Shown here: positions 5,638 to 55,983 of the stretch, one piece after another
How the letters are laid out: each line of letters starts with the position of its first letter
How positions within the stretch are numbered: the stretch's first letter is position 1
Assembly (NCBI RefSeq): GCF_004324835.1
Contig: NW_021163190.1
Location: 191,242 to 255,241, forward strand
Reading direction: 5' to 3'
Source of the DNA: Dendronephthya gigantea
Lineage: Eukaryota
DNA: 64,000 nt
Position numbers and translations under genes: made by a program
The notes under the pieces: generated by a model
Told to the model about the DNA's origin: nothing
Database searches by the model: none
Seen by the model: the letters and a program-made list of their open reading frames with translations, nothing else

Positions 5638-6605
5638 TGACTTAGACAGAGTAAAATACTAAAGTAGGTCACATCTGGGTGCATTGCAAGCTAATGGGTT
5701 AACAAGAGACACTGACAAATAGTTTTGTTAACTCGTTAACTGACAGTATTCTTCCACTGATGAGTAAAATCATCTGACATTAGACAGAGTAAAATACTAA
5801 AGTAGGTCACATCTGGGTGCATTGCAAGCTAATGGGTTAACAAGAGACACTGACAGATAGTTTTGTTAACTTATTAACTGACAGTACTCTTCCACTGATG
5901 AGTAAAATCATCTGACATTAGACAGAGTAAAATACTAAAGTCGGTCACATCTGGGTGCATTGCAAGCTAATGGGTTAACAAGAGACACTGACAGATAGTT
6001 TTGTTAACTTATTAACTGACAGTATTCTTCCACTGATGAGTAAAATCATCTGACATTAGACAGAGTAAAATACTAAAGTAGGTCACATCTGGGTGAATTG
6101 CAAGCTAATGGGTTAACAAGAGACACTGACAGATAGTTTTGTTAACTTATTAACTGACAGAACTCTTCCACTGATGAGTAAAATCATCTGACATTAGACA
6201 TAGTAAAATTAAGTAGGTCACATCTGGGTGCATTGCAAGCTAATGGGTTAACAAGAGACACTGACAGATAGTTTTGTTAACTTGTTAACTGACAGTACTT
6301 TTCCACTGGTGAGTAAAATCGTCTGACATTAGACAGAGTAAAATACTAAAGTAGGTCACATCTGGGTGCATTGCAAGCTAATGGGTTAACAAGAGACACT
6401 AACAGATAGTTTTGTTAACTTATTAACTGACAGTACTCTTCCACTGATGAGTAAAATCATGTGACATTAGACAGAGTAAAATACTAAAGTAGGTCACATC
6501 TGGGTGCATTGCAAGCTAATGGGTTAACAAGAGACATTGACAGATAGTTTTGTTAACTTATTAACTGACAGTACTCTTCCACTGATGAGTAAAATCATCT
6601 GACAC
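5638..6605. repeat. 138-bp satellite, ~7 tandem units, in the divergent promoter region upstream of the gene at 6996
   Basis: Period measured: GACATTAGACAG recurs at 5776, 5914, 6052. Unit: gacattagacagagtaaaatactaaagtaggtcacatctgggtgcattgcaagctaatgggttaacaagagacactgacagatagttttgttaacttattaactgacagtactcttccactgatgagtaaaatcatct. Confidence 0.9.
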
Positions 6606-6995: not shown

Positions 6996-8618
6996 ATGGC
7001 TTCATATATACAAGGCTACGATAAAGAAAGGTTTGTCGACAAAATCAATCAAAATTTTCATTGCCAGATTTGCTTCAACGTCTTGAAAGAGCCGGTTATG
7101 TGTTCGAGAAACCAGCATTCTTTTTGCCGTTGTTGTATTACGAAACATCTGGAAAATTCTCAAACATGTCCAACGTGTGCTGATGAACTGACCGTAGAGA
7201 CTTTGATCGAACCACCGCGAATGGTTAAAGATTTTTTGAAAGAATCAAAAATTCGTTGCGTTTACATCGACAGAGGTTGTCAAGAAGTTGTAGAATTACA
7301 GCATCTTGACCGCCATGAAGATACATGTGGATATACACCAGCCGTTTGTACAAACCAAGGCTGTGGTTTAATTGTCAACAAGCGTGATCTTATTCACCAT
7401 GAAAGTGAAGTCTGTGAATTCCGAAAGTTGAAGTGTCACTCGTGCGGAGAAATAACGAAAACTTTGGCAGATATGGAGGAAAGAATGGCGAATATCGAGA
7501 AAAATAATGTAACAATTGAAACTAAAATAACAAATTTAGAGAAAAATATGGCGAGAAATACAACAGTCGCAGTCGCAGATTTAAAAGCAGATATGGAAGG
7601 AAAACACGAAGCGGTTAACAACGAAGTCAAAGGATTGAAAACAGCTTTGGTCAGAGCTTTTGATGAAATTAAGGACGTTCTTATCACGATGGAGGGCAAG
7701 ATAGAAGAAAACACAAGAAAAGTAAGAAATAGACCAAGTGGTGATAAGGAAAATATTATTGTTGCTGGAGGTTTTTTGACTAATTCTGTAGAGATGTTTA
7801 ACTGGCGTCAAAGAACATGGTCGCCATTACAATCAATGCCAAAGGATCGTTGGGGAGCGACTTCATTTATTTATAACAATCATATGACTATAGCTGGGGG
7901 TAGCTGTGCTGGGTCTGACATTGTTGATGACATGATTAGAATGAATATTGACCCAAACCCTGATCTCTCAACACAGTGGAGTGACTGTCCCGTTGAACTA
8001 CCTGATAAGTTGCAAAACCACAGCAGTGTGCTGTATAATGATCAGTTGATAGTCTCTGGAGGTGATTGCAAAAATGGTACATCTGACTTGATCGGATCAG
8101 CCCAGCTTGTTCCTCCCTATACTGTGAAGACCTTATCAAGAATGCCAGAACCAAGACAAGGTCACAGCATGGAAATATTTGATGATAATTTGGTGATAGT
8201 TGGTGGATTTTCAAATCGCCAATACAATGACATCCTCAGCAGTGGCATGCTGTACGGTATAAAGAAGAATGATCTGAAACAGTTATCACCACTGCCGTAT
8301 GAAGTGTGTGGTATGGCAACTGTGAGATGGGGAGACAACATTGTTGTTATTGGTGGCACTGATAATCATGGCAAGACATTAGATACAGTTATCATTTACA
8401 ATGTCAAGACAGGACAAAGTCACATGCTGCCATCAATGAGATGTAAGAGGAGGGGATGTACTGCAGTTGTTATTGAAAACAACATTGTAGTCCTGGGAGG
8501 GTGTGGTGAGGAAGGAGAGCTGAACTCAGTTGAAGGTTTCAACTTTGAAAGGTATTCTTGGGAAGAACTTCCAGAAATGTCTGAAGCAAGATGCTTGCAC
8601 AGTGCTGTTGTTGTGTGA
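6996..8618 (+). CDS. RING (C3HC4) - TRAF-type zinc finger - coiled coil - 6-blade Kelch propeller protein, 540 aa, intronless
   Basis: ORF track. RING: CQICFNVLKEPVMCSRNQHSFCRCCITKHLENSQTCPTC. zf-TRAF-like Cys/His spacing: CVYIDRGCQEVVELQHLDRHEDTCGYTPAVCTNQGCGLIVNKRDLIHHESEVCEFRKLKCHSCGE. Six GG-doublet blades: IIVAGG, MTIAGG, LIVSGG, LVIVGG, IVVIGG, IVVLGG. TGA stop followed by AATAAA-like signals. Confidence 0.85.
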   Translation: MASYIQGYDKERFVDKINQNFHCQICFNVLKEPVMCSRNQHSFCRCCITKHLENSQTCPTCADELTVETLIEPPRMVKDFLKESKIRCVYIDRGCQEVVELQHLDRHEDTCGYTPAVCTNQGCGLIVNKRDLIHHESEVCEFRKLKCHSCGEITKTLADMEERMANIEKNNVTIETKITNLEKNMARNTTVAVADLKADMEGKHEAVNNEVKGLKTALVRAFDEIKDVLITMEGKIEENTRKVRNRPSGDKENIIVAGGFLTNSVEMFNWRQRTWSPLQSMPKDRWGATSFIYNNHMTIAGGSCAGSDIVDDMIRMNIDPNPDLSTQWSDCPVELPDKLQNHSSVLYNDQLIVSGGDCKNGTSDLIGSAQLVPPYTVKTLSRMPEPRQGHSMEIFDDNLVIVGGFSNRQYNDILSSGMLYGIKKNDLKQLSPLPYEVCGMATVRWGDNIVVIGGTDNHGKTLDTVIIYNVKTGQSHMLPSMRCKRRGCTAVVIENNIVVLGGCGEEGELNSVEGFNFERYSWEELPEMSEARCLHSAVVV

Positions 8619-8885: not shown

Positions 8886-11627
8886 TTCTGCTCCTCCCAC
8901 CAACTTAGGTTTTTCAACCCCCCCCCCCACCTGTTTTTTACCCCCCCCTACCTAGGTTTTTCACCCCCCTTTCCATCTAGGCTTTTCACACTCACACACA
9001 CCCTCGCACCTACTTTTTTTAGCCATAACCCCAACCCTCCCCACCTAGGTTCTTCTGCCCTGGTCCCCTAGACCAAGAATCCTAACTGAGCCTCTGCCTG
9101 AAGAAATAGCTCAGTTACCTATTTTAAATATCAGCCTGTCTGTAAATGATGTCTGTGTCTGTCAGACTGCCACAGACAGTCATATTTTAAAATTTAACAA
9201 TTAACAAGATTTGGAGAGACAGTTTTACTCTTTACTAAAACAGAACCCAGAAAATTCTTGTTTCAAGTTTGCTCACAGATTGTTTTGTAATTTGACGTTT
9301 TCCATCGCGTCCTTGAAGGCTTTTAGTACAAGATTTACATTATCTTTTGTACTGTTCAACCCCATCAGAGACCAACACGCCATGTCTGAAAAATTTCATG
9401 ACAAAAAGTAAGGTTTTTCAAAGGGGAAAAAATTTACGATCATGAAGCGAATATCTGCGAATATGGAGAAGAAAATTGTGAATATGGGTACCTTTCCAGC
9501 AGATCTTCCAAGACCGCCTAAAATATCCATTTTAGATCTGAAAAAGAAATTGATTATTCAATTTTAACACTCTCTCTCTTTACTGGACCTCCATGAATCA
9601 CCCCCCTGCAATGCTAAAAAATGCAACTGTTACCAGGGGGGGATTTTCCCAAGATTCATCACTCAGTACGTAAGTCGGTAAGTACGTAAGTAGTATTACT
9701 GAGCAGGTACAGTAAATGGAAAATACAATGCTTTTGCAATATACAATGATATTTTTGTTGAAATAAAACCATATACGGTAGAAATAACTACAAAACCCTG
9801 CTCCAATTTACCAATGCAACAACTATTATTACAAATAGTGTTTTGGGTTTACGATTAAACCATTCTTATAAAGTTGTAAATGAAAATGTTGTGTTATTCC
9901 TGAGTAAGGAATTTCCTGCGATTTTCTCAACACTGAACCTTCATCAGCGAACCCTGAAGACTTCAAAAGGGTGAAATAAAATATTTGCACTAAAACCTAT
10001 CAAAAATGAATGAAGTGAATTACTCTAGTGCAATACACGGGTCTACGCGGTTGTTCTCAAGTCATGCAACGATGAACCTTCCATATTTCATTTTAAAATT
10101 TATGGCTTTATTGTTGAAGAAAATGAAAGCGAAAAAGAGAAATTGTTTACAAGTAAAATAGTCAGATTGTCTTTTAAATTGTTGTGGAAAACTCATTTTG
10201 TTTCGAGAAATGCATTATAGTTTCAAATTTAGTTTAGCCGAATTCATATTAGAGGCGGGAAACTCGTCTTACAAGGTCAAGGAAAACAGAAAACTTGTCT
10301 TACAGGGGAAACTCCTCTTGGAAACTCATCTTAGACGGGAAACTCGTGTGATGTGAATCAGGCCACAGACGGGTTTCTCGTCAGAATTTTCCCGCCTAAC
10401 TTTCCTGTCTAAAGAAACGGTTAATTTGAACGGGAATCCCTTCTGGACGAGAAACTCGTCTTAAATTCGCATTTAGACGGATAAATCAGACGAGTTTCTG
10501 AAATATCAACACGGTCAAGGACGGAACAAGGGTAAAGCCCGCCGCACAAGAGAGCTATCAGCTGAACTAACGACCTCGCGAGGCAGTTAACTCAGCCTGA
10601 AAACTATCCGCACACGATAGAAACTTGCCTCTCGAGGCGAATTCCTCACGAAAAACTATCCGCACACGAGAGTAACTTGCTGAGCTAACAGCCTCGCGAG
10701 GTCTTTACCTCAGCTACCAGCTCTCGTGTGAGGCGCACTTAACTGAGAAAATTAAACAAAATTATTATCGTAATAATCACGATACCCTTTTTAGCATTAC
10801 CCGACCCATCACACGTGTAAATTTTATATCCACTCCAAGTCATATTAAGACGGGTTTTTACAATCAACTTTCCTGTCTAAGATGAATTTCCCGTGCCTAA
10901 TATGAATTTGGTTATTAATGTGACAGAGATGATACCTTCGGCTTCTCCGCTTCCTTGAATATACAATCCATTGTTATATGGTTTGTTGTTGTTTGAATAA
11001 GAACGTAATTTTCGTCAGATCTTCGCAGCAAATGGTGTCATGACAGAACTCGCTGGTTTGCAAATTATGTCGACATCATTGTGTGTACGAGAGCCTCTGT
11101 ATAATGATAAATTCACGTTAATTTAATTGTTTTGTAAGATTATAAGAATATTATCGATTCGCTGTGTTGTTACAAGGTTACATCTGGTCTTACCTTGGTG
11201 TTGCGAAATCACCACAACCCTGACTGTCACATTCACGGAATAAATTTCTACCATTTGAGCTGCAAAGCTGACCAAGTTTAAAACATTCAACCGCATTATC
11301 TAGAAAAATAAATACAGAAAAATGAGAATAACGAAGTGATACTTGAGAACTCTATGAACAAAGATATATATCACAATATGTATTCCAGTACCTGCAAAGA
11401 CTAGAATTTTTATTATTTCTGGTTTCGAGCATTTGAATCGGTGTTAAAGCATTTAGCTAACACGTGTTTTTTTCCTAAGCCATTGTTTGGATCACTGACA
11501 TGCTTGTACAGGAACATCATGATCTGAGTCAATAATAATGTGGTCACACTCATCGGTCACATGCAGAATGTCTTCATTCACGTGATCAGTTATATTAGTA
11601 ATTTCGTGTGGTATATCGTAAGGAAAG

Positions 11628-11731
11628 CTGAAGTCAGTTGAAGGTTTCAACTTTGAAAGGTATTCTTGGGAAGAACTTCCGGAAATGTCTGAAGCAAGAT
11701 GGTGGCACACTGCTGTTGTTGTGTGAACAAT
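11628..11731 (+). pseudogene. Orphan 3' fragment of a Kelch gene copy (KSVEGFNFERYSWEELPEMSEARWWHTAVVV*) with its 3'UTR, interrupted by a GC-rich insertion
   Basis: Matches the last ~100 nt of the family CDS. The 3'UTR acaatatg is split by a ~137-bp GC-rich insert (11741-11877) flanked by ATATG on both sides. Confidence 0.6.
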
Positions 11732-13210: not shown

Positions 13211-14815
13211 ATGGCTTCATATATACAAGGCTACGATGAAGAAAGGTTTGTGGACAAAATCAATCAAAATTTTCATTGCCAGATTTGCTTCAACGTCTTG
13301 AAAGAGCCGGTTATGTGTTCGAGAAACCAGCATTCTTTTTGCCGTTGTTGTATTACGACACATCTGGAAAATTCTCAAACATGTCCAACGTGTGCTGATG
13401 AACTGACCGTAGAGACTTTGATTGAACCACCGCGAATGGTTAAAGATTTTTTGAATGAATCAAAAATTCGTTGCATTTACATCGACAGAGGTTGTCAAGA
13501 AGTTGTAGAATTACAGCATCTTGACCGCCATGAAGATACATGTGGATATACACCAGCCGTTTGTACAAACCAAGGCTGTGGTTTAATTGTCAACAAGCGT
13601 GATCTTATTCACCATGAAAGTGAAGTCTGTGAATTCCGAAAGTTGAAGTGTCACTCGTGCAGAGAAATGACGAAAACTTTGCCAGATATAGAGGAAAGAA
13701 TGGCGAAGAATAATGTGACAATTGAAACAAAAATAACAAATTTAGAGAGGAATATGGCAAAAAATACCGCAGATATAAAAGCAGATATGGAAGGAAAACT
13801 CGAAGCGGTTAACAACAAAGTCGATGGATTGAAAACAGCTTTGGTCAGAGCTTTTGATGAAATGAAGGACGTTCTTATCACGATGGAGGGCAAGATAGAA
13901 GAAAACACAAGAAAAGTAAGAAATAGACCAAGTGGTGATAAGGAAAATATAATCGTTGCTGGAGGTTTAGGAATTAACTCTGTAGAGATGTTTAACTGGC
14001 GTCAAAGAACATGGTCGCCATTACAATCAATGCCAGAGGATCGTTATGGAGCGACTTCATTTATTTATAACAATCATATGACTATAGCTGGGGGTTGCTG
14101 TGGTGTTTGGTTTGTCATTGTTGATGATATGATTAGAATGAATATTGACCCAAACCCTGATCTCTCAACACACTGGAGTAACTGTCCTGTTAAACTACCT
14201 GATAAGTTGAAAAACCACAGCAGTGTGCTGTATAATGATCAGTTGATAGTCTCTGGAGGTGATAATGGAAATGTTTCATCAGACTTGATCAAATCAGTCC
14301 AGCTTGTTCCTCCCTATACTGTGAAGACCTTATCAAGAATGCCAGAACCAAGACAATGTCACAGCATGGAAATATTTGATGATAATTTGTTGATAGTTGG
14401 TGGAAGTACAACTGGCCATCACAAAGACAATCTCAGCAGTGTCGTACTGTACAATATAAAGAAGAATGAGCTGAAACAGTTGTCACCACTGCCGTATGAA
14501 GTGAATGATATGGCGACTGTGAGATGGGGAGACAACATTGTTGTTATTGGTGGCGAAGACAAACAAAGTTATAAATTAGATACAGTTATCATTTACAATG
14601 TCAAGACAGAACAAAGTCACATGTTGCCATCAATGAGATGTAAGAGGTGGGGAAGTACTGGAGTTATTATTGAAAACAACATTGTAGTCCTGGGAGGGAG
14701 GGGTGAGGACGAATACCTGAAGTCAGTTGAAGGTTTCAACTTTGAAAGGTATTCTTGGGAAGAACTTCCAGAAATGTCTGAAGCAAGATACTTGCACACT
14801 GCTGTTGTTGTGTGA
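13211..14815 (+). CDS. RING-zfTRAF-CC-Kelch paralog, 534 aa
   Basis: ORF track; same architecture. Shorter coiled-coil module and variant GG-loops (IAGGCCGVWFVIVDD). Confidence 0.85.
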   Translation: MASYIQGYDEERFVDKINQNFHCQICFNVLKEPVMCSRNQHSFCRCCITTHLENSQTCPTCADELTVETLIEPPRMVKDFLNESKIRCIYIDRGCQEVVELQHLDRHEDTCGYTPAVCTNQGCGLIVNKRDLIHHESEVCEFRKLKCHSCREMTKTLPDIEERMAKNNVTIETKITNLERNMAKNTADIKADMEGKLEAVNNKVDGLKTALVRAFDEMKDVLITMEGKIEENTRKVRNRPSGDKENIIVAGGLGINSVEMFNWRQRTWSPLQSMPEDRYGATSFIYNNHMTIAGGCCGVWFVIVDDMIRMNIDPNPDLSTHWSNCPVKLPDKLKNHSSVLYNDQLIVSGGDNGNVSSDLIKSVQLVPPYTVKTLSRMPEPRQCHSMEIFDDNLLIVGGSTTGHHKDNLSSVVLYNIKKNELKQLSPLPYEVNDMATVRWGDNIVVIGGEDKQSYKLDTVIIYNVKTEQSHMLPSMRCKRWGSTGVIIENNIVVLGGRGEDEYLKSVEGFNFERYSWEELPEMSEARYLHTAVVV

Positions 14816-15200: not shown

Positions 15201-15745
15201 GGTCCCCCAGACCAAGAATCCTAACTGAGCCTCTGCCTCAAGAAATAGCTCAGTTACCTATTTTAAATATCAGCCTGTCTGTAAATGATGTCTGTGTCTG
15301 TCAGACTGCCACAGACCAAGTCATATTTTAAAATTTAACAATTAACAAGATTTGGAGAGATAGTTTTACTCTTTATTAAAACAAAACCCTGATTAACTAA
15401 TATAAATTGGTTTGTCAACTAAAATAAAATTCTTGTTTCAAGTTTGCTCACAGATTGTTTTGTAATTTCACGTTTTCCATCGCGTCCTTGAAGGCTTTTA
15501 GTACAAGATTTACATTATCTTTTGTACTTTTCAACCCCATCAGACCAACACGCCATATCTGAAAAATTTCATGACAAAAAGTAAGGTTTTTCACAGGGAA
15601 AAAAATTACGATTATGGAGCGAATATCTGCGAATATGGAGAAGAAAATTGTGAATATGCATACCTTTCCAGCAGATCTTCCAAGACCACCTGAAATATCC
15701 ATTTTATATCTGAAAAATAAATTGATTATTCAATTTGAACACTCC
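15200..15745. repeat. Conserved ~560-bp spacer module ('module C') found after every gene copy; contains the inverted repeat GTCTGTG..CACAGAC
   Basis: >95% identical copies at 3236-3735, 9062-9590, 19665-20215, 30515-31070, 38370-38930, 45875-46410 and 52545-53100. A partial inverted copy lies at 31737-31880. Confidence 0.8.
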
Positions 15746-17664: not shown

Positions 17665-19308
17665 ATGGCTTCATATATACAAGGCTACGATGAAGAAAGG
17701 TTTGTGAACCAAATCGATCGAAATTTTCATTGTCAGATTTGCTTCAACGTCTTGAAAGAGCCGGTTATGTGTTCGAGAAACCAGCATTCTTTTTGCCTTT
17801 GCTGTATTACGAAACATCTGGAAAAATCTCAAACTTGTCCAACGTGTGCCGATGAACTGACCGTAGAGACTTTGGCCGAACCAAATAGAATGGTAAAAGA
17901 TTTTTTGAATGAATCAAAAATTCGTTGCGTTTACATGGACAGAGGTTGTCAAGAAGTTGTAGAATTACAGCATCTTGACCGCCATGAAGATACATGTGGA
18001 TATACACCAGCCGTTTGTACAAACCAAGGCTGTGGTTTAATTGTCAACAAGCGTGATCTTATTCACCATGAAAGTGAAGTCTGTGAATTCCGAAAGTTGA
18101 AGTGTCACTCGTGCGGAGAAATGACGAAAACTTTGGCAGATATGGAGGAAAGAATGGCGAATATCGAGAAGAATATGGTAACAAATAACATTGAAACTAA
18201 AATAACAAATTTAGAGAAAAATGTTGCCACTGTTGCGAATAATATGGAGAAAAACACGGCAGATTTAAAAGCAAATATAAAAGCAGATATGGAAGGAAAA
18301 CTCGAAGCGGTTAACAACAAAGTCGATGGATTGAAAACAGCTTTGGTCAGAGCTTTTGATGAAATAAAGGACGTTCTTATCACGATGGAGGGCAAGAAAG
18401 AAGAAAACACAAGAAAAGTAAGAAATAGACCAAGTGGTGATAAGGAAAATATAATTGTTGCTGGAGATGTAGTAACTAACTCTGTAGAGATGTTTAACTG
18501 GCGTCAAAGAACATGGTCGCCATTACAATCAATGCCAAAGGATCGTTTTGGAGCGACTTCATTTATTTATAACAATCATATGACTATAGCTGGGGGTTAC
18601 TGTGATGTCATTGTTGATGATATGATTAGAATGAATATTGACCCAAACCCTGATCTCTCAACACACTGGAGTGACTGTCCTGTTAAACTACCTGATAAGT
18701 TGAGATTCCACAGCAGTGTGCTGTATAATGATCAGTTGATGGTCTCTGGAGGTGATATTGAAAATGGTTCATCTGACTTGATCAGATCAGTCCAGCTTGT
18801 TCCTCCCTATACTGTGAAGACCTTATCAAGAATGCCAGAACCAAGACAAGGTCACAGCATGGAAATATTTGATGATAATTTAGTGATAGTTGGTGGAAGT
18901 ACAATTAGCAGTTACAAAGGCAACCTTAGCAGTGTCGTACTGTACGATATAAAGAAGAATGAGCTGAAACAGTTGTCACCACTGCAGTATGAAGTGAGTC
19001 ACATGGCAACTGTGAGATGGGGAGACAACATTGTTGTTATTGGTGGCGATGACAAACATGGCAAGACATTAGATACAGTTATCATTTACAATGTCAAGAC
19101 AGAACAAAGTCACATGTTGCCATCAATGAGATGTAAGAGGTGGGGATGTGCTGCAGTTGTTATTGAAAACAACATTGTAGTCCTGGGAGAGGATGGTGAG
19201 GAAGGAAACCTGAAGTCAGTTGAAGGTTTCAACTTTGAAAAGTATTTTTGGGAAGAACTTCCAGAAATGTCTGAAGCAAGATTGTGGCCCACTGCTGTTG
19301 TTGTGTGA
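17665..19308 (+). CDS. RING-zfTRAF-CC-Kelch paralog, 547 aa
   Basis: ORF track. Longest coiled-coil (extra IEKN/VATVANNMEKN modules). Last blade reads LGEDGEEG, not LGG. Confidence 0.8.
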   Translation: MASYIQGYDEERFVNQIDRNFHCQICFNVLKEPVMCSRNQHSFCLCCITKHLEKSQTCPTCADELTVETLAEPNRMVKDFLNESKIRCVYMDRGCQEVVELQHLDRHEDTCGYTPAVCTNQGCGLIVNKRDLIHHESEVCEFRKLKCHSCGEMTKTLADMEERMANIEKNMVTNNIETKITNLEKNVATVANNMEKNTADLKANIKADMEGKLEAVNNKVDGLKTALVRAFDEIKDVLITMEGKKEENTRKVRNRPSGDKENIIVAGDVVTNSVEMFNWRQRTWSPLQSMPKDRFGATSFIYNNHMTIAGGYCDVIVDDMIRMNIDPNPDLSTHWSDCPVKLPDKLRFHSSVLYNDQLMVSGGDIENGSSDLIRSVQLVPPYTVKTLSRMPEPRQGHSMEIFDDNLVIVGGSTISSYKGNLSSVVLYDIKKNELKQLSPLQYEVSHMATVRWGDNIVVIGGDDKHGKTLDTVIIYNVKTEQSHMLPSMRCKRWGCAAVVIENNIVVLGEDGEEGNLKSVEGFNFEKYFWEELPEMSEARLWPTAVVV

Positions 19309-22584: not shown

Positions 22585-24207
22585 ATGGCTTCATATATAC
22601 AAGGCTACGATGAAGAAAGGTTTGTGGACAAAATCAATCAAAATTTTCATTGTCAGATTTGCTTCAACGTCTTGAAAGAGCCGGTTATGTGTTCGAGAAA
22701 CCAGCATTCTTTTTGCCGTTGTTGTATTACGAAACATCTGGAAAATTCTCAAACATGCCCAACGTGTGCTGATGAACTGACCGTAGAGACTTTGGCCGAA
22801 GCACCGCGAATGGTTAAAGATTTCTTGAATGAATCGAAAATTCGTTGCGTTTACATCGACAGAGGTTGTCAAGAAGTTGTAGAATTACAGCATCTTGACC
22901 GCCATGAAAATACATGTGGATATACACCAGCCGTGTGTACAAACCAAGGCTGTGGTTTAATTGTCAACAAGCGTGATCTTATTCACCATGAAAGTGAAGT
23001 CTGTGAATTTCGAAAGTTGAAGTGTCACTCGTGCGGAGAAATAACCAAAACTTTGGCAGATATGGAGGAAAGAATGGCGAATATCGAGAATAATATCGAG
23101 AAGAATAATACAACAGTTGAAATTAAAATAACAAATTTAGACAGAAAAATAGACAAAAACACGGCAGATATAAAAGCGGATATGGAAGGAAAACACGAAG
23201 CGGTTAACAACAAAGTCGATGGATTGAAAACAGCTTTGGTCAAAGCTTTTAATGAAATAAAGGACGTTCTTATCACGATGGAGGGCAAGATAGAAGAAAA
23301 CACAAGAAAAGTAACAAATAGACCAAGTGGTGATAAGGAAAATATAATTGTTGCTGGAAGTTATGGAACTAACTCTGTAGAGATGTTTAACTGGCGTCAA
23401 AGAACATGGTCGCCATTACAATCAATGCCAGAGAATCGTTGTGGAGCGACTTCATTTATTTATAACAATCATATGACTATAGCTGGGGGTTGGTGTGGTG
23501 GGTCTGGCATTGTTGATGATATGATTAGAATGAATATTGACCCAAACCCTGATCTCTCAACAGACTGGAGTGACTGTCCTGTTAAACTACCTGATAAATT
23601 AATATTCCACAGCAGTGTGGTGTATAATGATGAGTTGATAGTCTCTGGAGGTGATAATGGAAATGGTTCATCTGACTTGATCAGAGCAGTCCAGCTTGTT
23701 CCTCCCTATACTGTGAAGACCTTATCAAGAATGCCAGAACCAAGACAATGTCACAGCATGGAAATATTTGATGATAATTTGTTGATAGTTGGTGGAAGTA
23801 CAATTAGCAGTTACAAAGGCAACCTTACCAGTGTCGTACTGTACGATATAAAGAAGAATGAGCTGAAACAGTTGTCACCACTACCGTATGAAGTGAGTCA
23901 CATGGCAACTGTGAGATGGGGAGACAACATTGTTGTTATTGGTGGTATTGACAAACATGGCAAGTTATTAGATAAAGTTATCATTTACAATGTGAAGACA
24001 GAACAAAGTCACATGCTGCCATCAATGAGATGTAAGAGGTGGGGATGTACTGCAGTTGTTATTGAAAACAACATTGTAGTCCTGGGAGGGGAGAGTGAGC
24101 AAGCAATGCAAACGTCAGTTGAAGGTTTCAACTTTGAAAGGTATTCTTGGGAAGAACTTCCAGAATTGTCTGAAGCAAAATGGATACACACTGCTGTTGT
24201 TGTGTGA
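22585..24207 (+). CDS. RING-zfTRAF-CC-Kelch paralog, 540 aa
   Basis: ORF track; same architecture; loop variants IAGGWCGGSGIVDD and LGGESEQAMQTSVEG. Confidence 0.85.
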   Translation: MASYIQGYDEERFVDKINQNFHCQICFNVLKEPVMCSRNQHSFCRCCITKHLENSQTCPTCADELTVETLAEAPRMVKDFLNESKIRCVYIDRGCQEVVELQHLDRHENTCGYTPAVCTNQGCGLIVNKRDLIHHESEVCEFRKLKCHSCGEITKTLADMEERMANIENNIEKNNTTVEIKITNLDRKIDKNTADIKADMEGKHEAVNNKVDGLKTALVKAFNEIKDVLITMEGKIEENTRKVTNRPSGDKENIIVAGSYGTNSVEMFNWRQRTWSPLQSMPENRCGATSFIYNNHMTIAGGWCGGSGIVDDMIRMNIDPNPDLSTDWSDCPVKLPDKLIFHSSVVYNDELIVSGGDNGNGSSDLIRAVQLVPPYTVKTLSRMPEPRQCHSMEIFDDNLLIVGGSTISSYKGNLTSVVLYDIKKNELKQLSPLPYEVSHMATVRWGDNIVVIGGIDKHGKLLDKVIIYNVKTEQSHMLPSMRCKRWGCTAVVIENNIVVLGGESEQAMQTSVEGFNFERYSWEELPELSEAKWIHTAVVV

Positions 24208-24769
24208 ACAATATGTAAGGTATTAAGTGAAAACTCCTAACATATTATGAACAATTGAAATGAACTATAAGATTTTCACAAAGTTATAGAAATAGATTGT
24301 AGGATTCTAAGTTGATTGTCAGACATATACTGATTTGTATTTTTGTAACTGAATTTAAATTGAGTCAGTTCTTGGAGTTATATATTAAAGAACAATGACA
24401 AATGTATGAAATAGATATTTCCATTCAGGAAGGTTTAAAATGAAACATCAAATAAAAGAATTCAAACAATAGGTAGGTGCATGAGTAAAAAAAATTTGAT
24501 TAAATATTGACCATGTTGGATCAGAGTTATTAGTTTCTATTAACTGCGGTTTGGATTTAAAAAATTCAACTTTCCTAGAAGCATAAATATTTCTGGGAGG
24601 AGACATAAAATGAAAGGGTAAACTTACGATGTTTCAGAGCATGTGATGCAGGGAATATTTCTGATGTTAGATTTCAACATTGATAATGGCGTTTGTTCAT
24701 CTCTACCATGATGTTCTCCACATTTGAAATAAAATTCCTTTGAAAGAACAAAAAGTTTGTGATCGACCT

Positions 24770-25190
24770 ACTTTAGTATTTTAATCTGTCTAATGTCAGA
24801 TGATTTTACTCATCAGTGGAAGAGTACTGTCAGTTAATAAGTTAACAAAACATTCTGTCAGTGTCTCTTGTTAACCCATTAGCTTGCAATGCACCCAGAT
24901 GTGACCTACTTTAGTATTTTACTCTGCCTAATGCCAGATGATTTTACTCATCAGTGGAAGAGTACTGTCAGTTAATAAGTTAACAAAACTATCTGTCAGT
25001 GTCTCTTGTTAACCCATTAGCTTGCAATGCACCCAGATGTGACCTACTTTAGTATTTTACTCTGTCTAATGTCAGATGATTTTACTCATCAGTGGAAGAG
25101 TACTGTCAGTTAATAAGTTAGCAAAACTATCTGTCAGTGTCTCTTGTTAACCCATTAGATTGCAATGCCCCCAGATGTGGCCCACTATTG
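24770..25190. repeat. Same 138-bp satellite, ~3 units, inverted orientation
   Basis: Reverse-complement monomers (tactttagtattttactctgtctaatgtcagatgattttactcatcagtggaagag...). Confidence 0.85.
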
Positions 25191-25619
25191 TATTTTAGGT
25201 CTGATAGGTCTTACAGCTGTTTTTCCATGACAGTTTGTATTGGATTCACATTGTCCCTGCAAGCGGCCTTTGATCAATACATCATCCCAACCATTTGGAC
25301 CCTTGCAAGAAACCATAAATATTGTGTAAACAAGATATTTGTTGACATTCAAAAGCTTTCACAGCAAGCTTGTAAACAAGTTGAAACAATGTCAACATTT
25401 AATTTACAAAGTTGTACATAAATCTGCTGTGGTTTTTTACAAGTTGTTTATAAGCAAAGAGTAAATACCTGTGATAGAACAAAGCTTCCTTCCTTGCAAT
25501 TTGAACATCGACATCGCAATTTTCCTCGTGTTAGTTTCTTGCAAGTTTTACAATAAACAAAGAAGAAACTTTGCTTGCCTGAGATGAGAGAGGATGAAAA
25601 GTTTGGATTATTAAAGAAG

Positions 25620-28519: not shown

Positions 28520-30157
28520 ATGGCTTCATATATACAAGGTTACGATGAAGAAAGGTTTGTGGACAAAATAAATCAAAATTTTCATTGTCAGATTTGCTTC
28601 AACGTCTTGAAAGAGCCGGTTATGTGTTCGAGAAACCAGCATTCTTTTTGCCGTTGTTGTATTACGAAACATCTGGAAAATTCTCAAACATGCCCAACGT
28701 GTGCTGATAAACTGACCGTAGAGACTTTGGCCGAACCTTCACGAATGGTAAAAGATTTTTTAAATGAATCAAAAATTCGTTGCGTTTACATCGACAGAGG
28801 TTGTCAAGAAGTTGTAGAAGTGCAGCATCTTGACCGCCATGAAGATACATGTGGATATACACCAGCCGTTTGTACAAACCAAGGCTGTGGTTTAATTGTC
28901 AACAAGCGTGATCTTATTCACCATGAAAGTGAAGTCTGTGAATTCCGAAAGTTGAAGTGTCACTCCTGCGGAGAAATAACGAAAACCTTGGCAGATATGG
29001 ACGAAAGAATGGCGAATATGGAAAAGAACATAGGGAAGGAATAGTATAACAATTGAAACTAAAATAACAAATTTAGAGCGAAATGTTGCACGGAATATCG
29101 AGAAAAACACGGCAGATATAAAAAGCAGATATGGAAGGAAAACACGAAGCGGTTAACAACAAAGTCGATGGATTGAAAACAGCTTTGGTCAGAGCTTTTG
29201 ATGAATGAAGGACGTTTTTATCACGATGGAGGGCAAGAAAGAAGAAAAACAAGAAAAGTAGGAAATAGACCAAGTGGTGATAAGGAAAATATAATTGTTG
29301 CTGGTGGAGGTTTTTTGAATGAGTCTGTAGAGATGTTTAACTGGCGTCAAAGAACATGGTCGCCATTACAATCAATGCCAAAGGATCGTTGGGGAGCGAC
29401 TTCATTTATTTATAACAATGATATGACTATAGCTGGGGGTTTCTGTGGTTTGTCTGGCATTGTTGATGATATGATTAGAATGAATATTGACCCAAACCCT
29501 GATCTCTCAACACACTGGAGTGACTGTCCTGTTAAACTACCTGATAAGTTGAAATACCACAGCAGTGTGCTGTATAATGATCAGTTGATAGTCTCTGGAG
29601 GTGATAATGAAAATGTTTCATCTGACCTGATCAGAGCAGTCCAGCTTGTTCCTCCCTATACTGTGAAGACCTTATCAAGAATGCCAGAACCAAGGCATGG
29701 TCACAGCATGGAATTATTTGATGATAATTTGTTGATAGTTGGTGGAACTACAACTGGCTATACCAAAGACAACCTTAGCAGTGTCACGCTGTATGATATT
29801 AAGAAGAATGAGTTGAAACAGTTGTCACCACTGCCGTATGAAGTGAGTCACATGGCAACTGTGAGATGGGGAGACAACATTGTTGTTATTGGTGGTGATG
29901 ACAAACATGGCAAGACATTAGATACAGTTATCATTTACAATGTCAAAACAGAACAAAGTCACATGCTGCCATCAATGAGATGTAAGAGGTGGGGATGTAC
30001 TGCAGTTGTTATTGAAAACAACATTGTAGTCCTGGGAGGATCTGGTGAGCAAGGAAAGATGAAGTCAGTTGAAGGTTTCAACTTTGAAAGGTATTCTTGG
30101 GAAGAACTTCCAGAAATGTCTGAAGCAAGATACTGGCACACTGCTGTTGTTGTGTGA
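28520..30157 (+). pseudogene. RING-zfTRAF-CC-Kelch paralog disabled by several indels in the coiled-coil region (~29030-29230); Kelch half still reads as an ORF
   Basis: ORF splits into 28370..29044 and 29198..30157. Versus other copies: atagggaaggaatagtataacaattg instead of ..aataatgtaacaattg, and tgatgaatgaaggacgttttta missing bases. The RING/TRAF part and the Kelch part are in different frames. Confidence 0.7.
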
Positions 30158-32841
30158 ACAATATGTAAGGTATTAAGTGAAAACTCCTAACATATTATGA
30201 ACAATTGAAATGAACTATAAGATTTTCACAAAGTTATAGAAATAGATTGTAGCATTCTAAGTTGATTGTCAGACATATACTGATTTGTATTTTTGTGATT
30301 AAATTTAAATTGAGTCAGTTCTTAGAATATTATATTAAAGAACAATAACAAATCTTTGAAATAGATTTTTTCATTGAGGAAGGTTTAAAATGAAACACCA
30401 AATAAAAAATTTTAAATAAGCTTTTCTGCATCCCCTCCACCTAGGTTTTTCACCCCCCCCCTACCACATAGGTTTTTCAGCCACAACCACCCCCCCACTG
30501 GGTTTTTGCCTGGTCCCCCAGACCAAGAATCCTAACTGAGCCTCTGCCTCAAGAAATAGCTCAGTTACCTATTTTAAATATCAGCCTGTCTGTAAATGAT
30601 GTCTGTGTCTGTCAGACTGCCACAGACCAAATCATATTTTAAAATTTAACAATTAACAAGATTTGGAGAGATAGTTTTACTCTTTAATAAAACAAAACCC
30701 TGATTAACTAATATAAATTGGTTTGTCAAATAAAATAAAATTCTTGTTTCAAGTTTGTTCACAGATTGTTTTGTAATTTCACGTTTTCCATCGCGTCCTT
30801 GCAGGCTTTTAGTACAAGATTTACATTATCTTTTGTACTGTTCAACCCCATCAGACCAACACGCCATATCTGAAAAATTTCACAACAAAAAGTACGGTTT
30901 TTCACAGGGGAAAAATTTACGATTATGGAGCGAATATCTGCGAATATGGAGAAGAAAATTGTGAATATGGATACCTTTCCAGCAGATCTTCCAAGACCAC
31001 CTGAAATATCCATTTTATACCTGAAAATGAAATTGATTATTCAATTTTAACACTCCCTCTTTATTGGACCTCAATCACCCCTCTGTATGTATTAAAAATA
31101 TAGGTGTTGGCAGGGGGGGTAGAAATTCCAAAGTCTATCAATCAGCAAGTACCGTTAATGAGAGGAATCACCCCCCTGCCCGTATTAAAAATGTATCTGT
31201 TGGCAGGGGGGTGATTGCTTTCATTTACCGTACCTGCTGAGTGACGAACCTCTTATGCAAAAAACTATGGAGTTGTTCTTCTGATAGGTATTCTGTGCCT
31301 ACACTTTCTTTTAGTTTTATTGTATTTTTATCTTTACTTGAAAGCACGACATGAAATTCCCATTTAGACCTAACCCGGGGGATGACGGGAGTCAATGACC
31401 AAATTCATTACTCATTCTGTTTCGAGAAATGCATTATAGTTTAAAATTTAGTTTAGTTGAATTCATATTAGAGGCGGGAAACTCGTCTTACAAGGTCAAG
31501 GAAAACAGGAAACTCGTCTTACAGGGGAAACTCCTCTTGGAAACTCATCTTAGACGGGAAACTCGTCGGATGTGAATCAGGCCACAGACGGGTTTCTCGT
31601 CAGAATTTTCCCGCCTAACTTTCCCGTCTAAACAAACGGTTAATTTGAACGGGAATCCCTTCTGGACGAGAAACTCGTCTTAAATTCGCATTTAGACGGA
31701 TAAATCAGACGAGTTTCTGAAATATCAAAAACTTGACAAACCAATTTATATTAGTTAATCCGGGTTTTGTTTTAATAGAGAGTAAAACTATCTCTCCAAA
31801 TCTTGTTAATTGTTAAATTTTAAAATATGACTTGGTCTGTGGCAGTCTGACAGACGCAGACATCATTTACAGACAGGCTGATATTTAAGAAAAACTTGAA
31901 ACGGTTAACAACGAGGTCATCCTAACTGAATCTTCATATCCACACTGTGTAGCCATATCACAGATTAATACCCAGATATCCCACTTCAGATTAAAAAAGC
32001 GTAACCCCTTGTTCAGCAAGTGGCTAGACGCATTCACCCTCCCGAAATTTCAAAATTGAGCGGAACTATTTTGTATATGAAAATAAACTCCTCTCATTTG
32101 CTAGAGAAAGGGACTGTATGATTAAGTTTGTGCCTAAATCCATCATCATCTATACGCGCTTTGAAAAAGTTAGTTAAGAGTACCTCGTTTTCAATATTGT
32201 AGAAGTGTTTTATCTTTTTTCGATTGTCGTAGGAGCGGAAAATTATAAGCAGTAGAAATCACTGTTCGACGGTATATTTTCAAACATATTTCATTTAAAA
32301 AGTACTAGTGTGTGCATGAATATCTTTACATTGAATAGCCTTTCCTGTACAAATCAATAAATGTACATATATTCCGTTTCATTTGAACACATCGTGCAGT
32401 TTTTAACCATATGCTCTATCTATAAACTATTTATTACGATTGATTTTTCTTAGTATAAAGTATCATTTTCTTTGAACTCATTTCCATATAATGAAATAAG
32501 AAATTCCTAGCAACATAAACACAACCAATAGCAAGTCAGTATTTAAATAAACAACAGGTACTCAGCTTTTGTCACAAGACAATAATATTAACATAATTTT
32601 TTTATACCACAAATTGCTGTCCACAAAACACTCTTTAAACACTTTAAAAGGAAGAGATATTTCTCTATTGTTCTAAACAGATAATTTTGCAAGAAATATA
32701 TTGAGAAAATACAAACACATGCAGACTTCTTCAAGAACGAACACTGTATCTATATTCAGTCTATACAGCGAGGTTTATACTACAGAGCGACAAACAACAC
32801 AGAACTTGCTTTATTATTACGACACAAGAACGACGTGAAAT

Positions 32842-34467
32842 ATGGCTTCATATATACAAGGCTACGACGAAGAAAGGTTTGTGGACAAAATCAATCAAAA
32901 TTTTCATTGCCAGATTTGCTTCAACGTCTTGAAAGAGCCGGTTATGTGTTCGAGAAACCAGCATTCTTTTTGCCGTTGTTGTATTACGAAACATCTGGAA
33001 AATTCTCAAACATGCCCAACGTGTGCTGATGAACTGACCGTAGAGACTTTGATCGAACCACCGCGAATGGTTAAAGATTTTTTGAATGAATCAAAAATTC
33101 GTTGCGTTTACATCGACAGAGGTTGTCAAGAAGTTGTAGAATTACAGCATCTTGACCGCCATGAAGATACATGTGGATATACACCAGCCGTTTGTACAAA
33201 CCAAGGCTGTGGTTTAATTGTCAACAAGCGTGATCTTATTCGCCATGAAAGTGAAGTCTGTGAATTCCGAAAGTTGAAGTGTCACTCGTGCGGAGAAATA
33301 ACGAAAACTTTGGCAGATATGGAGGAAAGAATGGCGAATATCGAGAAGAATAATGTAACAATTGAAACTAAAATAACAAATTTGGAGAAAAACGTTGCCA
33401 CTGTTGCAAATATCGAGAAAAACACGGCAGACTTAAAAGCGAATATGGAAGGAAAACACGAAGCGGTTAACAACGAAGTCAAAGGATTGAAAACAGCTTT
33501 GGTCAGAGCTTTTGATGAAATAAAGGACGTTCTTATCACGATGGAGGGCAAGAAAGAAGAAAACACAAGAAAAGTAATAAATAGACCAAGTGGTGATAAG
33601 GAAAATATAATTGTTGCTGGAGGTTATTTGACTAACTCTGTAGAGATGTTTAACTGGCGTCAAAGAACATGGTTGCCATTACAATCAATGCCAGAGAAAC
33701 GTTATGGAGCGACTTCATTTATTTACAACAATCATATGACTATAGCTGGGGGTTGCTGTTTTCCTAACATTGTTGATGATATGATTAGAATGAATATTGA
33801 CCCAAACCCTGATCTCTCAACACACTGGAGTGACTGTCCTGATAAACTACCTGATAAGTCGAGATTCTACAGCAGTGTGCTGTATAATGATCAGTTGATA
33901 GTCTCTGGAGGTGAAGAGAGAAACGATTCATCTGACTTGATCAGAGCAGTCCAGCTTGTTCCTCCCTATACTGTGAAGACCTTATCAAGAATGCCAGAAC
34001 CAAGACAATGTCACAGCATGGAAATATTTGATGATAATTTGTTGATAGTTGGTGGAAGAACAACTCACAGACACACAGACAACCTCAGCAGTGTCGTACT
34101 GTACGATATAAAGAAGAATGAGCTGAAACAGTTGTCACCACTACCGTATGAAGTGAGTCTCATGGCAACTGTGAGATGGGGAGACAACATTGTTGTTATT
34201 GGTGGCATTGACAAACATGCCAAGACATTAGATACAGTTATCATTTACAATGTCAAGACAGAACAAAGTCACATGCTGCCATCAATGAGACGGAAAAGGA
34301 GGGGATGTACTGCAGTTGTTATTGAAAACAACATTGTAGTCCTTGGAGGGTTTGGTGAGCGACGAGAGCTGAAGTTAGTTGAAGGTTTCAACTTTGAAAG
34401 GTATTCTTGGGAAGAGCTTCCAGAAATGTCTGAAGCAAGATACTGGCACACTGCTGTTGTTGTGTGA
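32842..34467 (+). CDS. RING-zfTRAF-CC-Kelch paralog, 541 aa
   Basis: ORF track; same architecture; loops IAGGCCFPNIVDD, SGGEERNDSSD, LGGFGERRELKLVEG. Confidence 0.85.
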   Translation: MASYIQGYDEERFVDKINQNFHCQICFNVLKEPVMCSRNQHSFCRCCITKHLENSQTCPTCADELTVETLIEPPRMVKDFLNESKIRCVYIDRGCQEVVELQHLDRHEDTCGYTPAVCTNQGCGLIVNKRDLIRHESEVCEFRKLKCHSCGEITKTLADMEERMANIEKNNVTIETKITNLEKNVATVANIEKNTADLKANMEGKHEAVNNEVKGLKTALVRAFDEIKDVLITMEGKKEENTRKVINRPSGDKENIIVAGGYLTNSVEMFNWRQRTWLPLQSMPEKRYGATSFIYNNHMTIAGGCCFPNIVDDMIRMNIDPNPDLSTHWSDCPDKLPDKSRFYSSVLYNDQLIVSGGEERNDSSDLIRAVQLVPPYTVKTLSRMPEPRQCHSMEIFDDNLLIVGGRTTHRHTDNLSSVVLYDIKKNELKQLSPLPYEVSLMATVRWGDNIVVIGGIDKHAKTLDTVIIYNVKTEQSHMLPSMRRKRRGCTAVVIENNIVVLGGFGERRELKLVEGFNFERYSWEELPEMSEARYWHTAVVV

Positions 34468-34924: not shown

Positions 34925-35225
34925 GTGATCAACCTACTTTAGTATTTTACCCTGTCTAATGTCAGATGATTTTACTCATCAGTGGAAGAGTACTGTCAGT
35001 TAACAAGTTAACAAAACTATCTGTCAGTGTCTCTTGTTAACCCACTAGCTTGCAATGCACCCAGATGTGACCTACTTTAGTATTTTACTCTGTCTAATTT
35101 CAGGTGATTTTACTCATCAGTGGAAGAGTACTGTCAGTTAATAAGTTAACAAAACTATTTGTCAGTATCTCTTGTTAACCCATTAGCTTGCAATGCACCT
35201 AGATGTGACCCACTATTGTATTTTA
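34925..35225. repeat. Same 138-bp satellite, ~2 units, inverted orientation (paralogous to 24770-25190)
   Basis: Sequence identity to 24770-25190. Confidence 0.85.
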
Positions 35226-37669: not shown

Positions 37670-38961
37670 ATTTCGCTAGAAAAGCTCGTGTATTTCCTTC
37701 CAATTGAGATAAAATAATTCAAAATATTTTGCTTCAAAACGAAAGTTTGGAAAAGAAATGTTTGAAAATTGAAAGTTTAAAACGACGGTTGCTTCTACTT
37801 ACCAAAACAAACTTCCTCTTTTTTCCTTGAAATTTCACTCCCTGACAGTTTTCTGATCTCTTGGAACACTGGAATGTTTAGCGTTTTCTAAGTTGACAAT
37901 CAATATAATCCATTTAATCCTTGAGATTAGGTTAGGATTAGGGTTAAACTTAGGATTAGGTTTATCCCTATTTAACAATAAACTTAAAACCTAATCTTAA
38001 CCCAAATCGTAACATAATCTCTGATCTCTCGCAACACTGGAATCTGATCTCTCGCTACACTGGAATGTTTGGTGTTTTCGATCCCGGCAGTATTATCCAT
38101 TTAATCCTTGAGATTAGGTTAGGATTAGGGTTAAATTTAGGATAAGTTTAACCCTAATAAACTATAAACCAAAAACATAATCTTAACCTAATTCCTAACA
38201 TAATCCCAAAGATTAAATTCGTGTATTTAGGATTTAGTAAACATGGAGTTTTATATTAAAAACTATCGCAGCATCGTCAGCACTTTTGAAAGTGTAAATT
38301 CGCATTTTAATAGAACAAGTTAAAGTTTTCAGCCACAACCTCACCTGGGTTCTTCTGCCCCGGTCCCCCAGACCGAGAATCCTAACTGAGCCTCTGCCTC
38401 GAGAAATAGCTCAGTTACCTATTTTAAATATCAGACTGTCTGTAAATGATGTCTGTGTCTGTCAGACTGCCACAAACCAAGTCATATTTTAAAATTTAAC
38501 ATATAACAAGATTTGGAGAGATAGTTTTACTCTTTATTAAAACAAAACCCTGATTAACTAATATAAATTGGTTTGTCAAATAAAATAAAATTCTTGTTTC
38601 CAGTTTGCTCACAGATTGTTTTGTAATTTCACGTTTTCCATCGCGTCCTTGAAGGCTTTTAGTACAAGATTTACATTATCTTTTGTACTGTTCAACCCCA
38701 TCAGACCAACACGCCATATCTGAAAAATTTCACCACAAAAAGTACGGTTTTTCACAGGGAAAAAAATTTACGATTATGGAGTGAATATCTGCGAATATGG
38801 AGAAGAAGATTGTGAATATGGATACCTTTCCAGCAGATCTTCCAAGACCACCTGAAATATCCATTTTATATCTGAAAAAGAAATTGATTATTCAATTTTA
38901 ACACTCTCCCTCTTTACTGGACCTCTAAGAATCACCCCCCCTGCAAGTATTAAAAATGGGG

Positions 38962-40245: not shown

Positions 40246-40397
40246 ATGGCTTCATATATACAAGGCTACGATGAAGAAAGGTTTGTGAACCAAATCGATC
40301 GAAATTTTCATTGTCAGATTTGCTTCAACGTCTTGAAAGAGCCGGTTATGTGTTCGAGAAACCAGCATTCTTTTTGCCGTTGTTGTATTACGAAACA
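40246..40397 (+). pseudogene. 5' fragment (Met1..CCITKH) of a RING-zfTRAF-CC-Kelch copy, cut off by a transposon insertion
   Basis: MASYIQGYDEERFVNQIDRNFHCQICFNVLKEPVMCSRNQHSFCRCCITKH, then non-homologous GAATAC-rich sequence. The gene resumes at 43943. Confidence 0.8.
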
Positions 40398-54590: not shown

Positions 54591-54629
54591 TTAATATATA
54601 ATCCAGTCAAAAACGTTGTTTAAACAAAC

Positions 54630-55920: not shown

Positions 55921-55983
55921 CACTTGACCACTATGACCATTGAGACATGGTTTTTCAGGACAAATTAGTTCAACCAATACTTA

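Follow-up and report, generated by a model that had tools for sequence, protein, structure and literature searches.

A length-variable, coiled-coil-type stalk segment in a tandem RING/Kelch gene family of Dendronephthya gigantea: repeat instability probably filtered by structure

The array and the protein it encodes

The window considered here, which is the whole stretch of 64,000 nucleotides (nt) that was analysed, comes from the coral Dendronephthya gigantea (NCBI RefSeq assembly GCF_004324835.1, contig NW_021163190.1, positions 191,242 to 255,241 of the forward strand) and contains a tandem array of a gene for a RING/Kelch protein whose stalk differs in length from copy to copy. This stalk variation is most likely a matter of repeat instability filtered by structure. 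The window has a G+C content of about 37% and few open reading frames (ORFs). A tblastn search with the product of the ORF at 6996-8618 as the query recovers 9 copies or fragments of one intronless gene, which follow one another head-to-tail on the + strand, most of them at intervals of roughly 4.5-6.5 kb; these are referred to as c0 to c8. Copy c1 (6996-8618) encodes 540 amino acids (aa) in an open frame, and its product consists of a RING, two TRAF-type zinc fingers, a helical stalk and a six-bladed Kelch propeller. The frame is likewise open in c2 (13211-14815), c3 (17665-19308), c4 (22585-24207) and c6 (32842-34467), and in c8 (50571-52211), where the RING is damaged. Copy c5 (28520-30157) is a pseudogene with frameshifts, c7 is in two parts (40246-40398 plus 43944-45422) that lie about 3.5 kb apart, and c0 (3-1028) is truncated by the start of the window and holds an in-frame stop at 219-221 (NWR*RTW).

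The domain architecture can be assigned from several independent comparisons. Among Pfam families, zf-C3HC4_2 matches the RING at 34 bits (cut-off 27), zf-TRAF matches the zinc fingers, which are of the TRAF/Sina type, at 21-25 bits (below the cut-off of 27), and several Kelch families score above their cut-offs. Residues 5-151 of c1, including an N-terminal QGYD motif, align with TRAF6 RING-ZF1-ZF2 structures (5vo0, 3hcs) at an E-value of 2e-10 in phmmer. The C-terminal 290 residues of c1 are modelled by AlphaFold with a predicted local distance difference test score (pLDDT) above 90, and the model can be superposed on the Kelch domains of KLHL12 and Keap1, which likewise have six blades, with a root-mean-square deviation (rmsd) of 1.7-1.8 Å and a target-normalised TM-score of about 0.9. 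The RING, too, is modelled confidently. The N-terminus accordingly has the succession of RING and TRAF-type zinc fingers that is expected of a TRAF, and the C-terminus has the six blades expected of a Kelch propeller. No Pfam match at E up to 0.01 was obtained for a MATH/TRAF-C domain, in the place of which the C-terminus carries the propeller, or for any B-box family, and there is no Pfam match to BTB or BACK. Lacking MATH, B-box and BTB, the family does not qualify as TRAF, TRIM or KLHL, respectively, by the tests that define those families.

The nearest database proteins are full-length (516-609 aa) and 62-76% identical; all of the named ones come from the octocoral Paramuricea clavata and bear automatic names such as "RING finger 151-like" or "NRDP1". 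Another assembly also holds tandem arrays of the RING/Kelch gene, and 272 proteins are found at E up to 1e-30 among 50%-identity representatives, including full-length relatives at 34-45% identity. A word search of the literature, octocoral genome papers included, found no description of a RING/TRAF-zinc-finger/Kelch family, which is not proof of absence. The process favoured here for the stalk variation is of a known kind, encountered in a domain architecture that was not found described.

Between the zinc fingers and the variable part of the stalk lies a conserved segment that consists of a CxxC motif and the N-terminal anchor of the stalk (c1, 7425-7487, + strand; GEITKTLADMEERM). It is ungapped among the copies and carries an RhxxhE motif (RMANIE in c1). 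The CxxC itself (C147-H-S-C150, 7434-7445 in c1) is found at the same place in all copies and is without downstream His or Cys partners. Since divergent subfamilies have a complete finger of the form C-x2-C-x11-H-x-C at this place, the motif can be regarded as a vestigial third TRAF finger.

Variation and periodicity of the stalk

In c1 the variable zone occupies positions 7488-7589 and encodes 34 aa (ANIEKNNVTIETKITNLEKNMARNTTVAVADLKA), and it is followed at 7590-7754 by the C-terminal half of the stalk, 55 aa (DMEGK...RPSGDKEN) that have the same length in every copy and are nearly invariant across the family alignment. The first-pass annotation had placed the variation at 7480-7700, a range that does contain the zone, but its portion from 7590 to 7700 belongs to the conserved C-terminal half; the four peptides which it quoted from the ORFs at 6996, 13211, 17665 and 22585 are all present exactly as written. 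The zone is preceded by 21 aa and followed by 55 aa that do not vary in length across the copies. Of the 53 alignment columns in the zone 27 contain a gap; the C-terminal stalk, with 55 columns, has none, and the propeller has 3 among 288. Nucleotide diversity in the zone is 10-16%, as compared with 0.5-5% on either side, a level that the hypervariable propeller loops also reach, so that the zone is a second peak of diversity beside those loops.

The other zones are found at 13703-13783 in c2 (27 aa, the shortest, with a 3-aa deletion that takes out the RhxxhE motif), 18157-18285 in c3 (43 aa, the longest), 23077-23178 in c4 (34 aa), 33334-33441 in c6 (36 aa, with a 6-aa NVATVA insertion), 44289-44390 in c7 (34 aa) and 51060-51179 in c8 (40 aa, with a 7-aa NVATVAN and a 3-aa insertion; coordinates derived from the segment 50997-51344), all on the + strand. 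Relative to c2 the net lengths are +7, +7, +7, +9, +13 and +16, and six different zones occur among the seven window copies whose stalk frame is open. In a DNA alignment of the stalks of 8 copies the length differences fall at four sites within about 100 nt: 3 aa at site A; 2, 3 or 4 aa at site B; 4 (in frame-corrected c5), 6 or 7 aa at site C; and 4 aa, twice independently, at site D. In these seven open-frame copies every indel is a multiple of 3 nt. Among 126 family members the segment from the CxxC to VNNxV ranges from 34 to 125 aa, and three adjacent paralogs in another assembly have 70, 66 and 62 aa. The notion that adjacent copies avoid equal stalk lengths was considered and rejected, as three equal-length copies would be non-adjacent among eight positions with a chance of 20/56 = 0.36, which is not significant.

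Units of 4, 7 and 11 residues (h-x-x-x, h-x-x-h-x-x-x; for example N-[MIVL]-E-K-N), repeated in degenerate form, make up the zone, and the copies do differ by whole short units, the IEKN and NTADIKA modules of the first-pass annotation being instances of them. Pooled autocorrelation of residue identity and hydrophobicity peaks at lags of 4, 7, 11, 14, 18, 21/22 and 25, and the Fourier peak for hydrophobicity is at 3.54 residues. With dynamic programming, a continuous chain of core positions spaced by 3 or 4 residues can be traced from the N-terminal to the C-terminal anchor in 125 of the 125 members tested (median z-score against shuffles 4.7); L, I, V, M and F make up 91% of this chain, Met alone 34%. 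Successive core steps alternate between 3 and 4 in 80% of cases, with 15% being 4-4 and 5% being 3-3. Proline accounts for 0.04% and glycine for 2.4% of the segment. The window copies all fit the 3/4 stripe, with one to three polar core residues (N, T, H) each. The extreme case is the family member P0115, in which the stalk contains nine nearly perfect NMETKLTNLEK units, and divergent subfamilies have stalk repeats of their own, made of 7-aa NSQKEMx units (P0153) or 10-aa units (P0130); repeat-driven stalk variation therefore recurs in the wider group. The earlier designation of the segment as a coiled coil is upheld in so far as it has the hydrophobic periodicity of a and d positions and the character of a long helix with few breakers. 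An AlphaFold2 model of the c1 monomer, run with a 121-sequence alignment, places helices at residues 158-184 and 193-234, at pLDDT below 50.

The sizes of the indels are not random in phase. When family members are linked through a minimum spanning tree computed from the protein sequence without the zone, and the zones of neighbours are then aligned, gaps of 3 and 4 aa, that is, of stammer and stutter size, are the commonest (39 and 52 cases), followed by 7 aa (21) and 14 aa (12), against 9 gaps of 1 aa, 3 of 2 aa, 3 of 5 aa and 5 of 6 aa. Taken together, 78% of the zone gaps belong to the classes 0, 3 and 4 modulo 7, compared with 43% expected (p 1e-17 to 1e-23 with three gap penalties). In the remainder of the protein the same pairs show an ordinary decaying spectrum, with 68, 28, 19 and 1 gaps of 1, 2, 3 and 4 aa. 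An artefact of the aligner was considered as the source of the 3/4/7 spectrum and discarded: simulated deletions of uniform size gave a recovered fraction of 0.41 for a true one of 0.43, and net length differences, which use no alignment, are in phase in 59% of cases (approximate binomial p 0.001, from our own tally of counts). Strict conservation of heptad phase has to be rejected as well, because net differences in the window run from +7 to +16 and the zone lengths in the family fill all classes modulo 7. On the question of whether the indels preserve heptad phase, which the first-pass annotation had posed, the answer is therefore divided: they are non-random and keep the local 3/4 spacing, but neither strict phase nor total length is preserved.

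These features suggest that the zone is probably the variable N-terminal half of an alpha-helical coiled-coil stalk that links a TRAF6-type RING/zinc-finger ligase module to the Kelch propeller. In 86 of 126 family members the RhxxhE motif occupies a constant position, as opposed to 1% of shuffled sequences, and the motif is described as one that stabilises parallel trimers and sets their register (PMC5940361). Judged from sequence, the likeliest form of assembly would be a parallel trimer with its nucleus in the invariant C-terminal half, given this motif, the polar N and T layers of the core and the TRAF-like surroundings. The 55-aa C-terminal half and the RhxxhE motif together would probably set oligomerisation, and the variable half would mainly alter the reach between ligase module and propeller, along with the local winding of the stalk. 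For a straight helix, the reach from the CxxC to the VNN would be about 74-98 Å in the window copies.

Origin of the length variation and competing explanations

Traces of repeat-based mutation are visible in the DNA of several zones, where a number of the indels still have the look of recent tandem duplications. Tandem Repeats Finder identifies a CAGTCG x2.5 tandem duplication in c1 (7564-7578), placed by the alignment within a 4-aa insertion that is specific to this copy (TVAVA), a 12-nt tandem duplication in c3 (18266-18290; LKAN/IKAD) and a GAATATCGAGAA x2.4 tandem duplication in c4 (23079-23107; NIEN/NIEK), which occurs in perfect form in c7 (44291-44319), all on the + strand. The stalk units of P0115 are encoded by a 33-bp x9 tandem array with 84% matches and no indels (L002 6500-6796, in another assembly). 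Direct 5-mer repeats are enriched in the zone DNA of the window copies at lag 12 (50 observed versus 6 expected) and at lag 33 (17 versus 5), and the substrates for slippage therefore favour steps of 4 and 11 residues. No such enrichment is seen in this DNA at lag 9 or lag 21, and indels of 3 and 7 residues therefore still call for a structural filter. The stalk of the pseudogene c5 (28949-29290, + strand, 342 nt) contains four 1-nt frameshifts and a stop codon and shows what builds up without selection; corrected for frame it reads ANMEKNIGK?NSITIETKITNLERNVARNIEKNTADIKADMEGK, which is another combination of units (NIGK, NVAR).

The copies are also mosaics of one another. Copy c2 is nearest to c1 in the RING-zinc-finger part and nearest to c3 in the C-terminal stalk; the zones of c4 and c7 are 3% different, but the two copies differ by 9% just downstream; and c2 and c3 differ by 12.8% in the zone as against 1.2% in the C-terminal stalk (Fisher p 3e-4). 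The zone has a synonymous divergence (dS) of 0.27; the values for the adjacent parts of the stalk and for the RING-zinc-finger part are 0.03 and 0.11, and the non-coding flanks differ by 16-34%. The DNA of the second zinc finger (about 7290-7430 in c1 and the same place elsewhere) has a diversity of 0.5-2% among the copies, and this near-identity, set against the difference between the flanks, points to strong homogenisation by gene conversion. We infer that the coding framework is kept uniform by gene conversion, from which the zone with its many indels is largely exempt. The tandem duplications in the window, the 33-bp x9 array and the mosaic paralogs together argue for slippage plus gene conversion.

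With respect to selection, the ratio of nonsynonymous to synonymous divergence (dN/dS) in the zone is 0.39, an estimate made from about 26 aligned codons in 7 non-independent copies, and gives no sign of positive selection on substitutions. In the propeller, 24 columns have at least 4 different residues among the 7 copies and yield a dN/dS of about 3.8, a value biased upward by the choice of columns for their variability; the remainder of the propeller gives 0.81. The hypervariable patches of the propeller (within 7755-8618 in c1 and the matching part in every copy) lie mostly just after the GG of a blade, and in c1 comprise residues 260-263, 283-286, 303-309, 340-341, 357-361, 405-412, 438-439, 455-461 and 503-510. 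Indels in the zone number 2.5 events per copy pair, or about 15.6 per kb, all of them in frame; the non-coding DNA downstream has 13.5 indels per kb, of which 35% are multiples of 3 (about 4.7 per kb).

At a probability of about 0.6, we attribute the variation to repeat slippage and gene conversion acting under a constraint of periodicity, with the length differences being mostly a tolerated by-product and not a selected tuning device. New variants would arise by slipped-strand events or unequal exchange between short direct DNA repeats, and gene conversion would reshuffle the stalk variants among paralogs. Only variants that keep the frame and the 3/4 spacing of the hydrophobic core would survive, so that fixed indels would mostly be of 3, 4, 7, 11 or 14 residues, and the total length and heptad phase of the stalk would drift freely.

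Several observations weigh against this interpretation, in its mechanistic or in its structural part. The few and non-independent codons behind the dN/dS of the zone are one of them. In-frame indels in the zone are fixed about three times as often as multiple-of-3 indels in the flank, which fits either a mutational hotspot or selection for changes of length. Selection for the maintenance of variants could also lie behind the high dS of the zone and the fact that it escapes homogenisation. Indels of 3 and 7 residues are common in the family although direct repeats in the window copies are not enriched at the matching lags of 9 and 21, so that mutational bias alone is insufficient. As for the structure, the AlphaFold monomer has pLDDT below 50 throughout residues 143-250 and a helix broken at 185-192, and a search of PDB sequences with the c3 stalk matched other coiled coils at a best E of 0.12, with none significant.

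The alternative that survives best is adaptive tuning, in which the length and winding of the stalk are selected in each paralog for the spacing and geometry between ligase and propeller, the zone being a second region of specificity. The zone ranks among the strongest diversity peaks of the gene, comparable to the hypervariable propeller loops; its rate of in-frame indels per copy pair exceeds that of multiple-of-3 indels in the non-coding flank; it resists the homogenisation that affects the flanking coding DNA; and six different zones occur among the seven open-frame copies of the window. On the other side stand the contrast in dN/dS between the zone and the hypervariable propeller columns, the visible signatures of slippage, which are a sufficient mutational cause, and the stalk lengths in the family, which cover the range of 34-125 aa continuously and favour no classes other than those of the 3/4 spacing. 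The zones of c4 and c7, moreover, are nearly alike and their propellers different. Adaptive tuning is in our judgement a possible but rather unlikely explanation, and the suggestion of the first-pass annotation that the stalk forms a second tunable region is not sustained: neither the dN/dS of the zone nor the wide range of lengths shows tuning, and the signatures of slippage and conversion account for the pattern.

A more far-reaching proposal would have an undescribed family of hundreds of intracellular ligases, each with a TRAF6-like RING and a Kelch propeller, act as a repertoire for immunity or allorecognition, with the top-face loops of the propeller serving in ligand recognition and the stalk indels, by self-sorting or by tuning of geometry, keeping co-expressed paralogs apart; this we regard as speculative and improbable. 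Slightly more doubtful still is self-sorting taken by itself, according to which mixed oligomers of co-expressed paralogs would be disfavoured by variable halves that differ in length, in register and in the polar layers of their core (N, T, H). The polar core residues do lie at different positions in different copies, the indels would displace the N-terminal ligase modules by 2-16 residues between paralogs, and the family is very large and tandemly arrayed, all of which is in keeping with such a code; the near-identical 55-aa C-terminal half of the stalk could, however, itself drive mixed assembly, and the zones of c4 and c7 are almost identical.

It is very unlikely that the segment is something other than a coiled coil, such as a flexible linker, or an amphipathic surface-binding helix with 11-residue repeats like those of apolipoproteins, perilipins or synucleins, in which case its length would matter little. 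A Pfam Apolipoprotein match below the cut-off (c3, E 0.004), a precomputed PF01442 entry for P0115, the 11-residue units with 3-4-4 spacing and the low confidence of AlphaFold in the stalk can be cited in its favour. The dominant period is nevertheless 3.54 and not 3.67, with 80% of the core steps alternating between 3 and 4; the stripe is narrow, taking up 1 residue in every 3.5, and aliphatic residues or Met fill 91% of it; the segment is not punctuated by prolines; and the zone leads straight into a canonical stretch of heptads, after a TRAF-type RING-zinc-finger module. In TRAF proteins, the coiled coil sits in this very position after the RING-zinc-finger module. Pseudogene decay or misalignment of a low-complexity stretch, which the damage in c0 (stop), c5 (frameshifts), c7 (insertion) and c8 (RING) might bring to mind, can be dismissed, because the seven copies whose stalk frame is open have only indels that are multiples of 3 and an intact hydrophobic stripe, the same behaviour extends across 126 full-length homologues, and the true pseudogene c5 differs in having 1-nt frameshifts.

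The family amounts to a natural library of more than 100 stalks in which the accepted indels are almost only of 3, 4, 7, 11 or 14 residues, and it provides a direct evolutionary read-out of a rule of coiled coils, namely that the discontinuities which they tolerate are stammers, stutters and complete heptads or hendecads. For cnidarian biology, it adds a large tandem family that combines a TRAF6-like ligase with a Kelch propeller and is marked by birth-and-death turnover, gene conversion and hypervariable propeller loops. The stalk variation is of use as a marker of paralog identity and as a source of stalk-length variants that can be tested, and does not constitute a new mechanism.

Turnover of the array and comparison with known systems

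Beyond the stalk, the window records a good deal of damage to the gene copies. Codon 51 of c7 is followed by an insertion of roughly 3.5 kb (40399-43943). Inverted repeats about 21 bp long (TGCATGAAAAACCGCGTATTC ... GAATACGGCGCTTTTCATGCA) form the ends of this insertion and suggest that it is a DNA transposon; no ORF of at least 140 aa is present inside it. In the RING of c8 (50750-50790), three separate 1-nt deletions turn CADELTVETLxEPxR into VLMTDRRDFDRTFT, and the last RING cysteine is lost, so that this RING is probably inactive although the ORF stays open. Between c1 and c2 there is a relic of the C-terminus of the gene (11586-11723, + strand; 46 codons, 67% identical). This relic, the stop in c0 and the damage in c5, c7 and c8 together indicate birth-and-death turnover in the array.

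The DNA between the gene copies contains 138-bp satellite arrays in both orientations (5638-6604, 24765-25197, 34932-35225 and 56185-57574), and further tandem arrays are located at 53801-54592 (77 bp x10) and 55373-55931 (80 bp x7). Several copies are followed, about 0.8 kb farther downstream, by tandem repeats of 21 bp x3 (15598-15658, 30913-30971, 38771-38822 and 46260-46322). One reading frame of these repeats gives (K)IANMEK, which resembles the stalk motif (KIANMEK-like heptads); the repeats have no ORF and lie inside a conserved piece of the array unit (84-91% identical).

By N-terminal sequence the closest known system is TRAF6, with which the family shares the RING-ZF1-ZF2 region (residues 5-151) and, as in TRAFs generally, a helical stalk after the fingers; it differs in having a Kelch propeller instead of the MATH/TRAF-C domain and a third zinc finger reduced to the CxxC. 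By propeller fold it is closest to KLHL proteins and Keap1 (rmsd 1.7-1.8 Å), but the coral family is without BTB/BACK, and ligase activity would come from its own RING and not from Cullin-3. TRIM proteins resemble it in the combination of a RING ligase, a coiled coil and a variable recognition domain, and in their lineage-specific family expansions. TRIM coiled coils, however, are antiparallel dimers of rather constant length, whereas the coral family has no B-box and a stalk segment of 34-125 aa. Rules on stalk length that the first-pass annotation had taken from TRAF and TRIM proteins can serve as analogies only, given that the family lacks both MATH and B-box.

In overall layout the closest counterpart is TRAF7, in which a TRAF-type N-terminus, made up of a RING and a TRAF zinc finger, and a coiled coil are likewise followed by a beta-propeller that replaces TRAF-C. 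TRAF7 is a single conserved gene, unlike the large tandem array of intronless genes in the coral, and its propeller is of the WD40 type, unlike the six-bladed Kelch propeller described here. The absence of TRAF-C and the presence of WD40 domains in TRAF7 are documented (PMC12387233).

With regard to the way in which the stalk evolves, two other systems offer parallels, one bacterial and one mammalian. In fibrous coiled-coil surface proteins such as the streptococcal M proteins, the stalk varies in length as short repeats are gained or lost, whether by intragenic recombination or by slippage, and retains the heptad pattern. M proteins are extracellular, bacterial and under antibody pressure, and their variation is allelic; in the coral the variation is between intracellular paralogs of an animal family. 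The trimeric coiled coil of L1ORF1p, from mammalian LINE-1, has conserved C-terminal heptads that suffice for trimerisation, together with RhxxhE motifs, and an N-terminal half that evolves rapidly, is hard to align and contains a stammer; this variable half is metastable and has been found experimentally to be required (PMC5940361). L1ORF1p is an unrelated protein in an unrelated context, and the coral stalk is known from sequence, with a zone dN/dS of 0.39. In its pairing of a conserved C-terminal with a variable N-terminal half, L1ORF1p nonetheless presents the closest known mode of stalk evolution.

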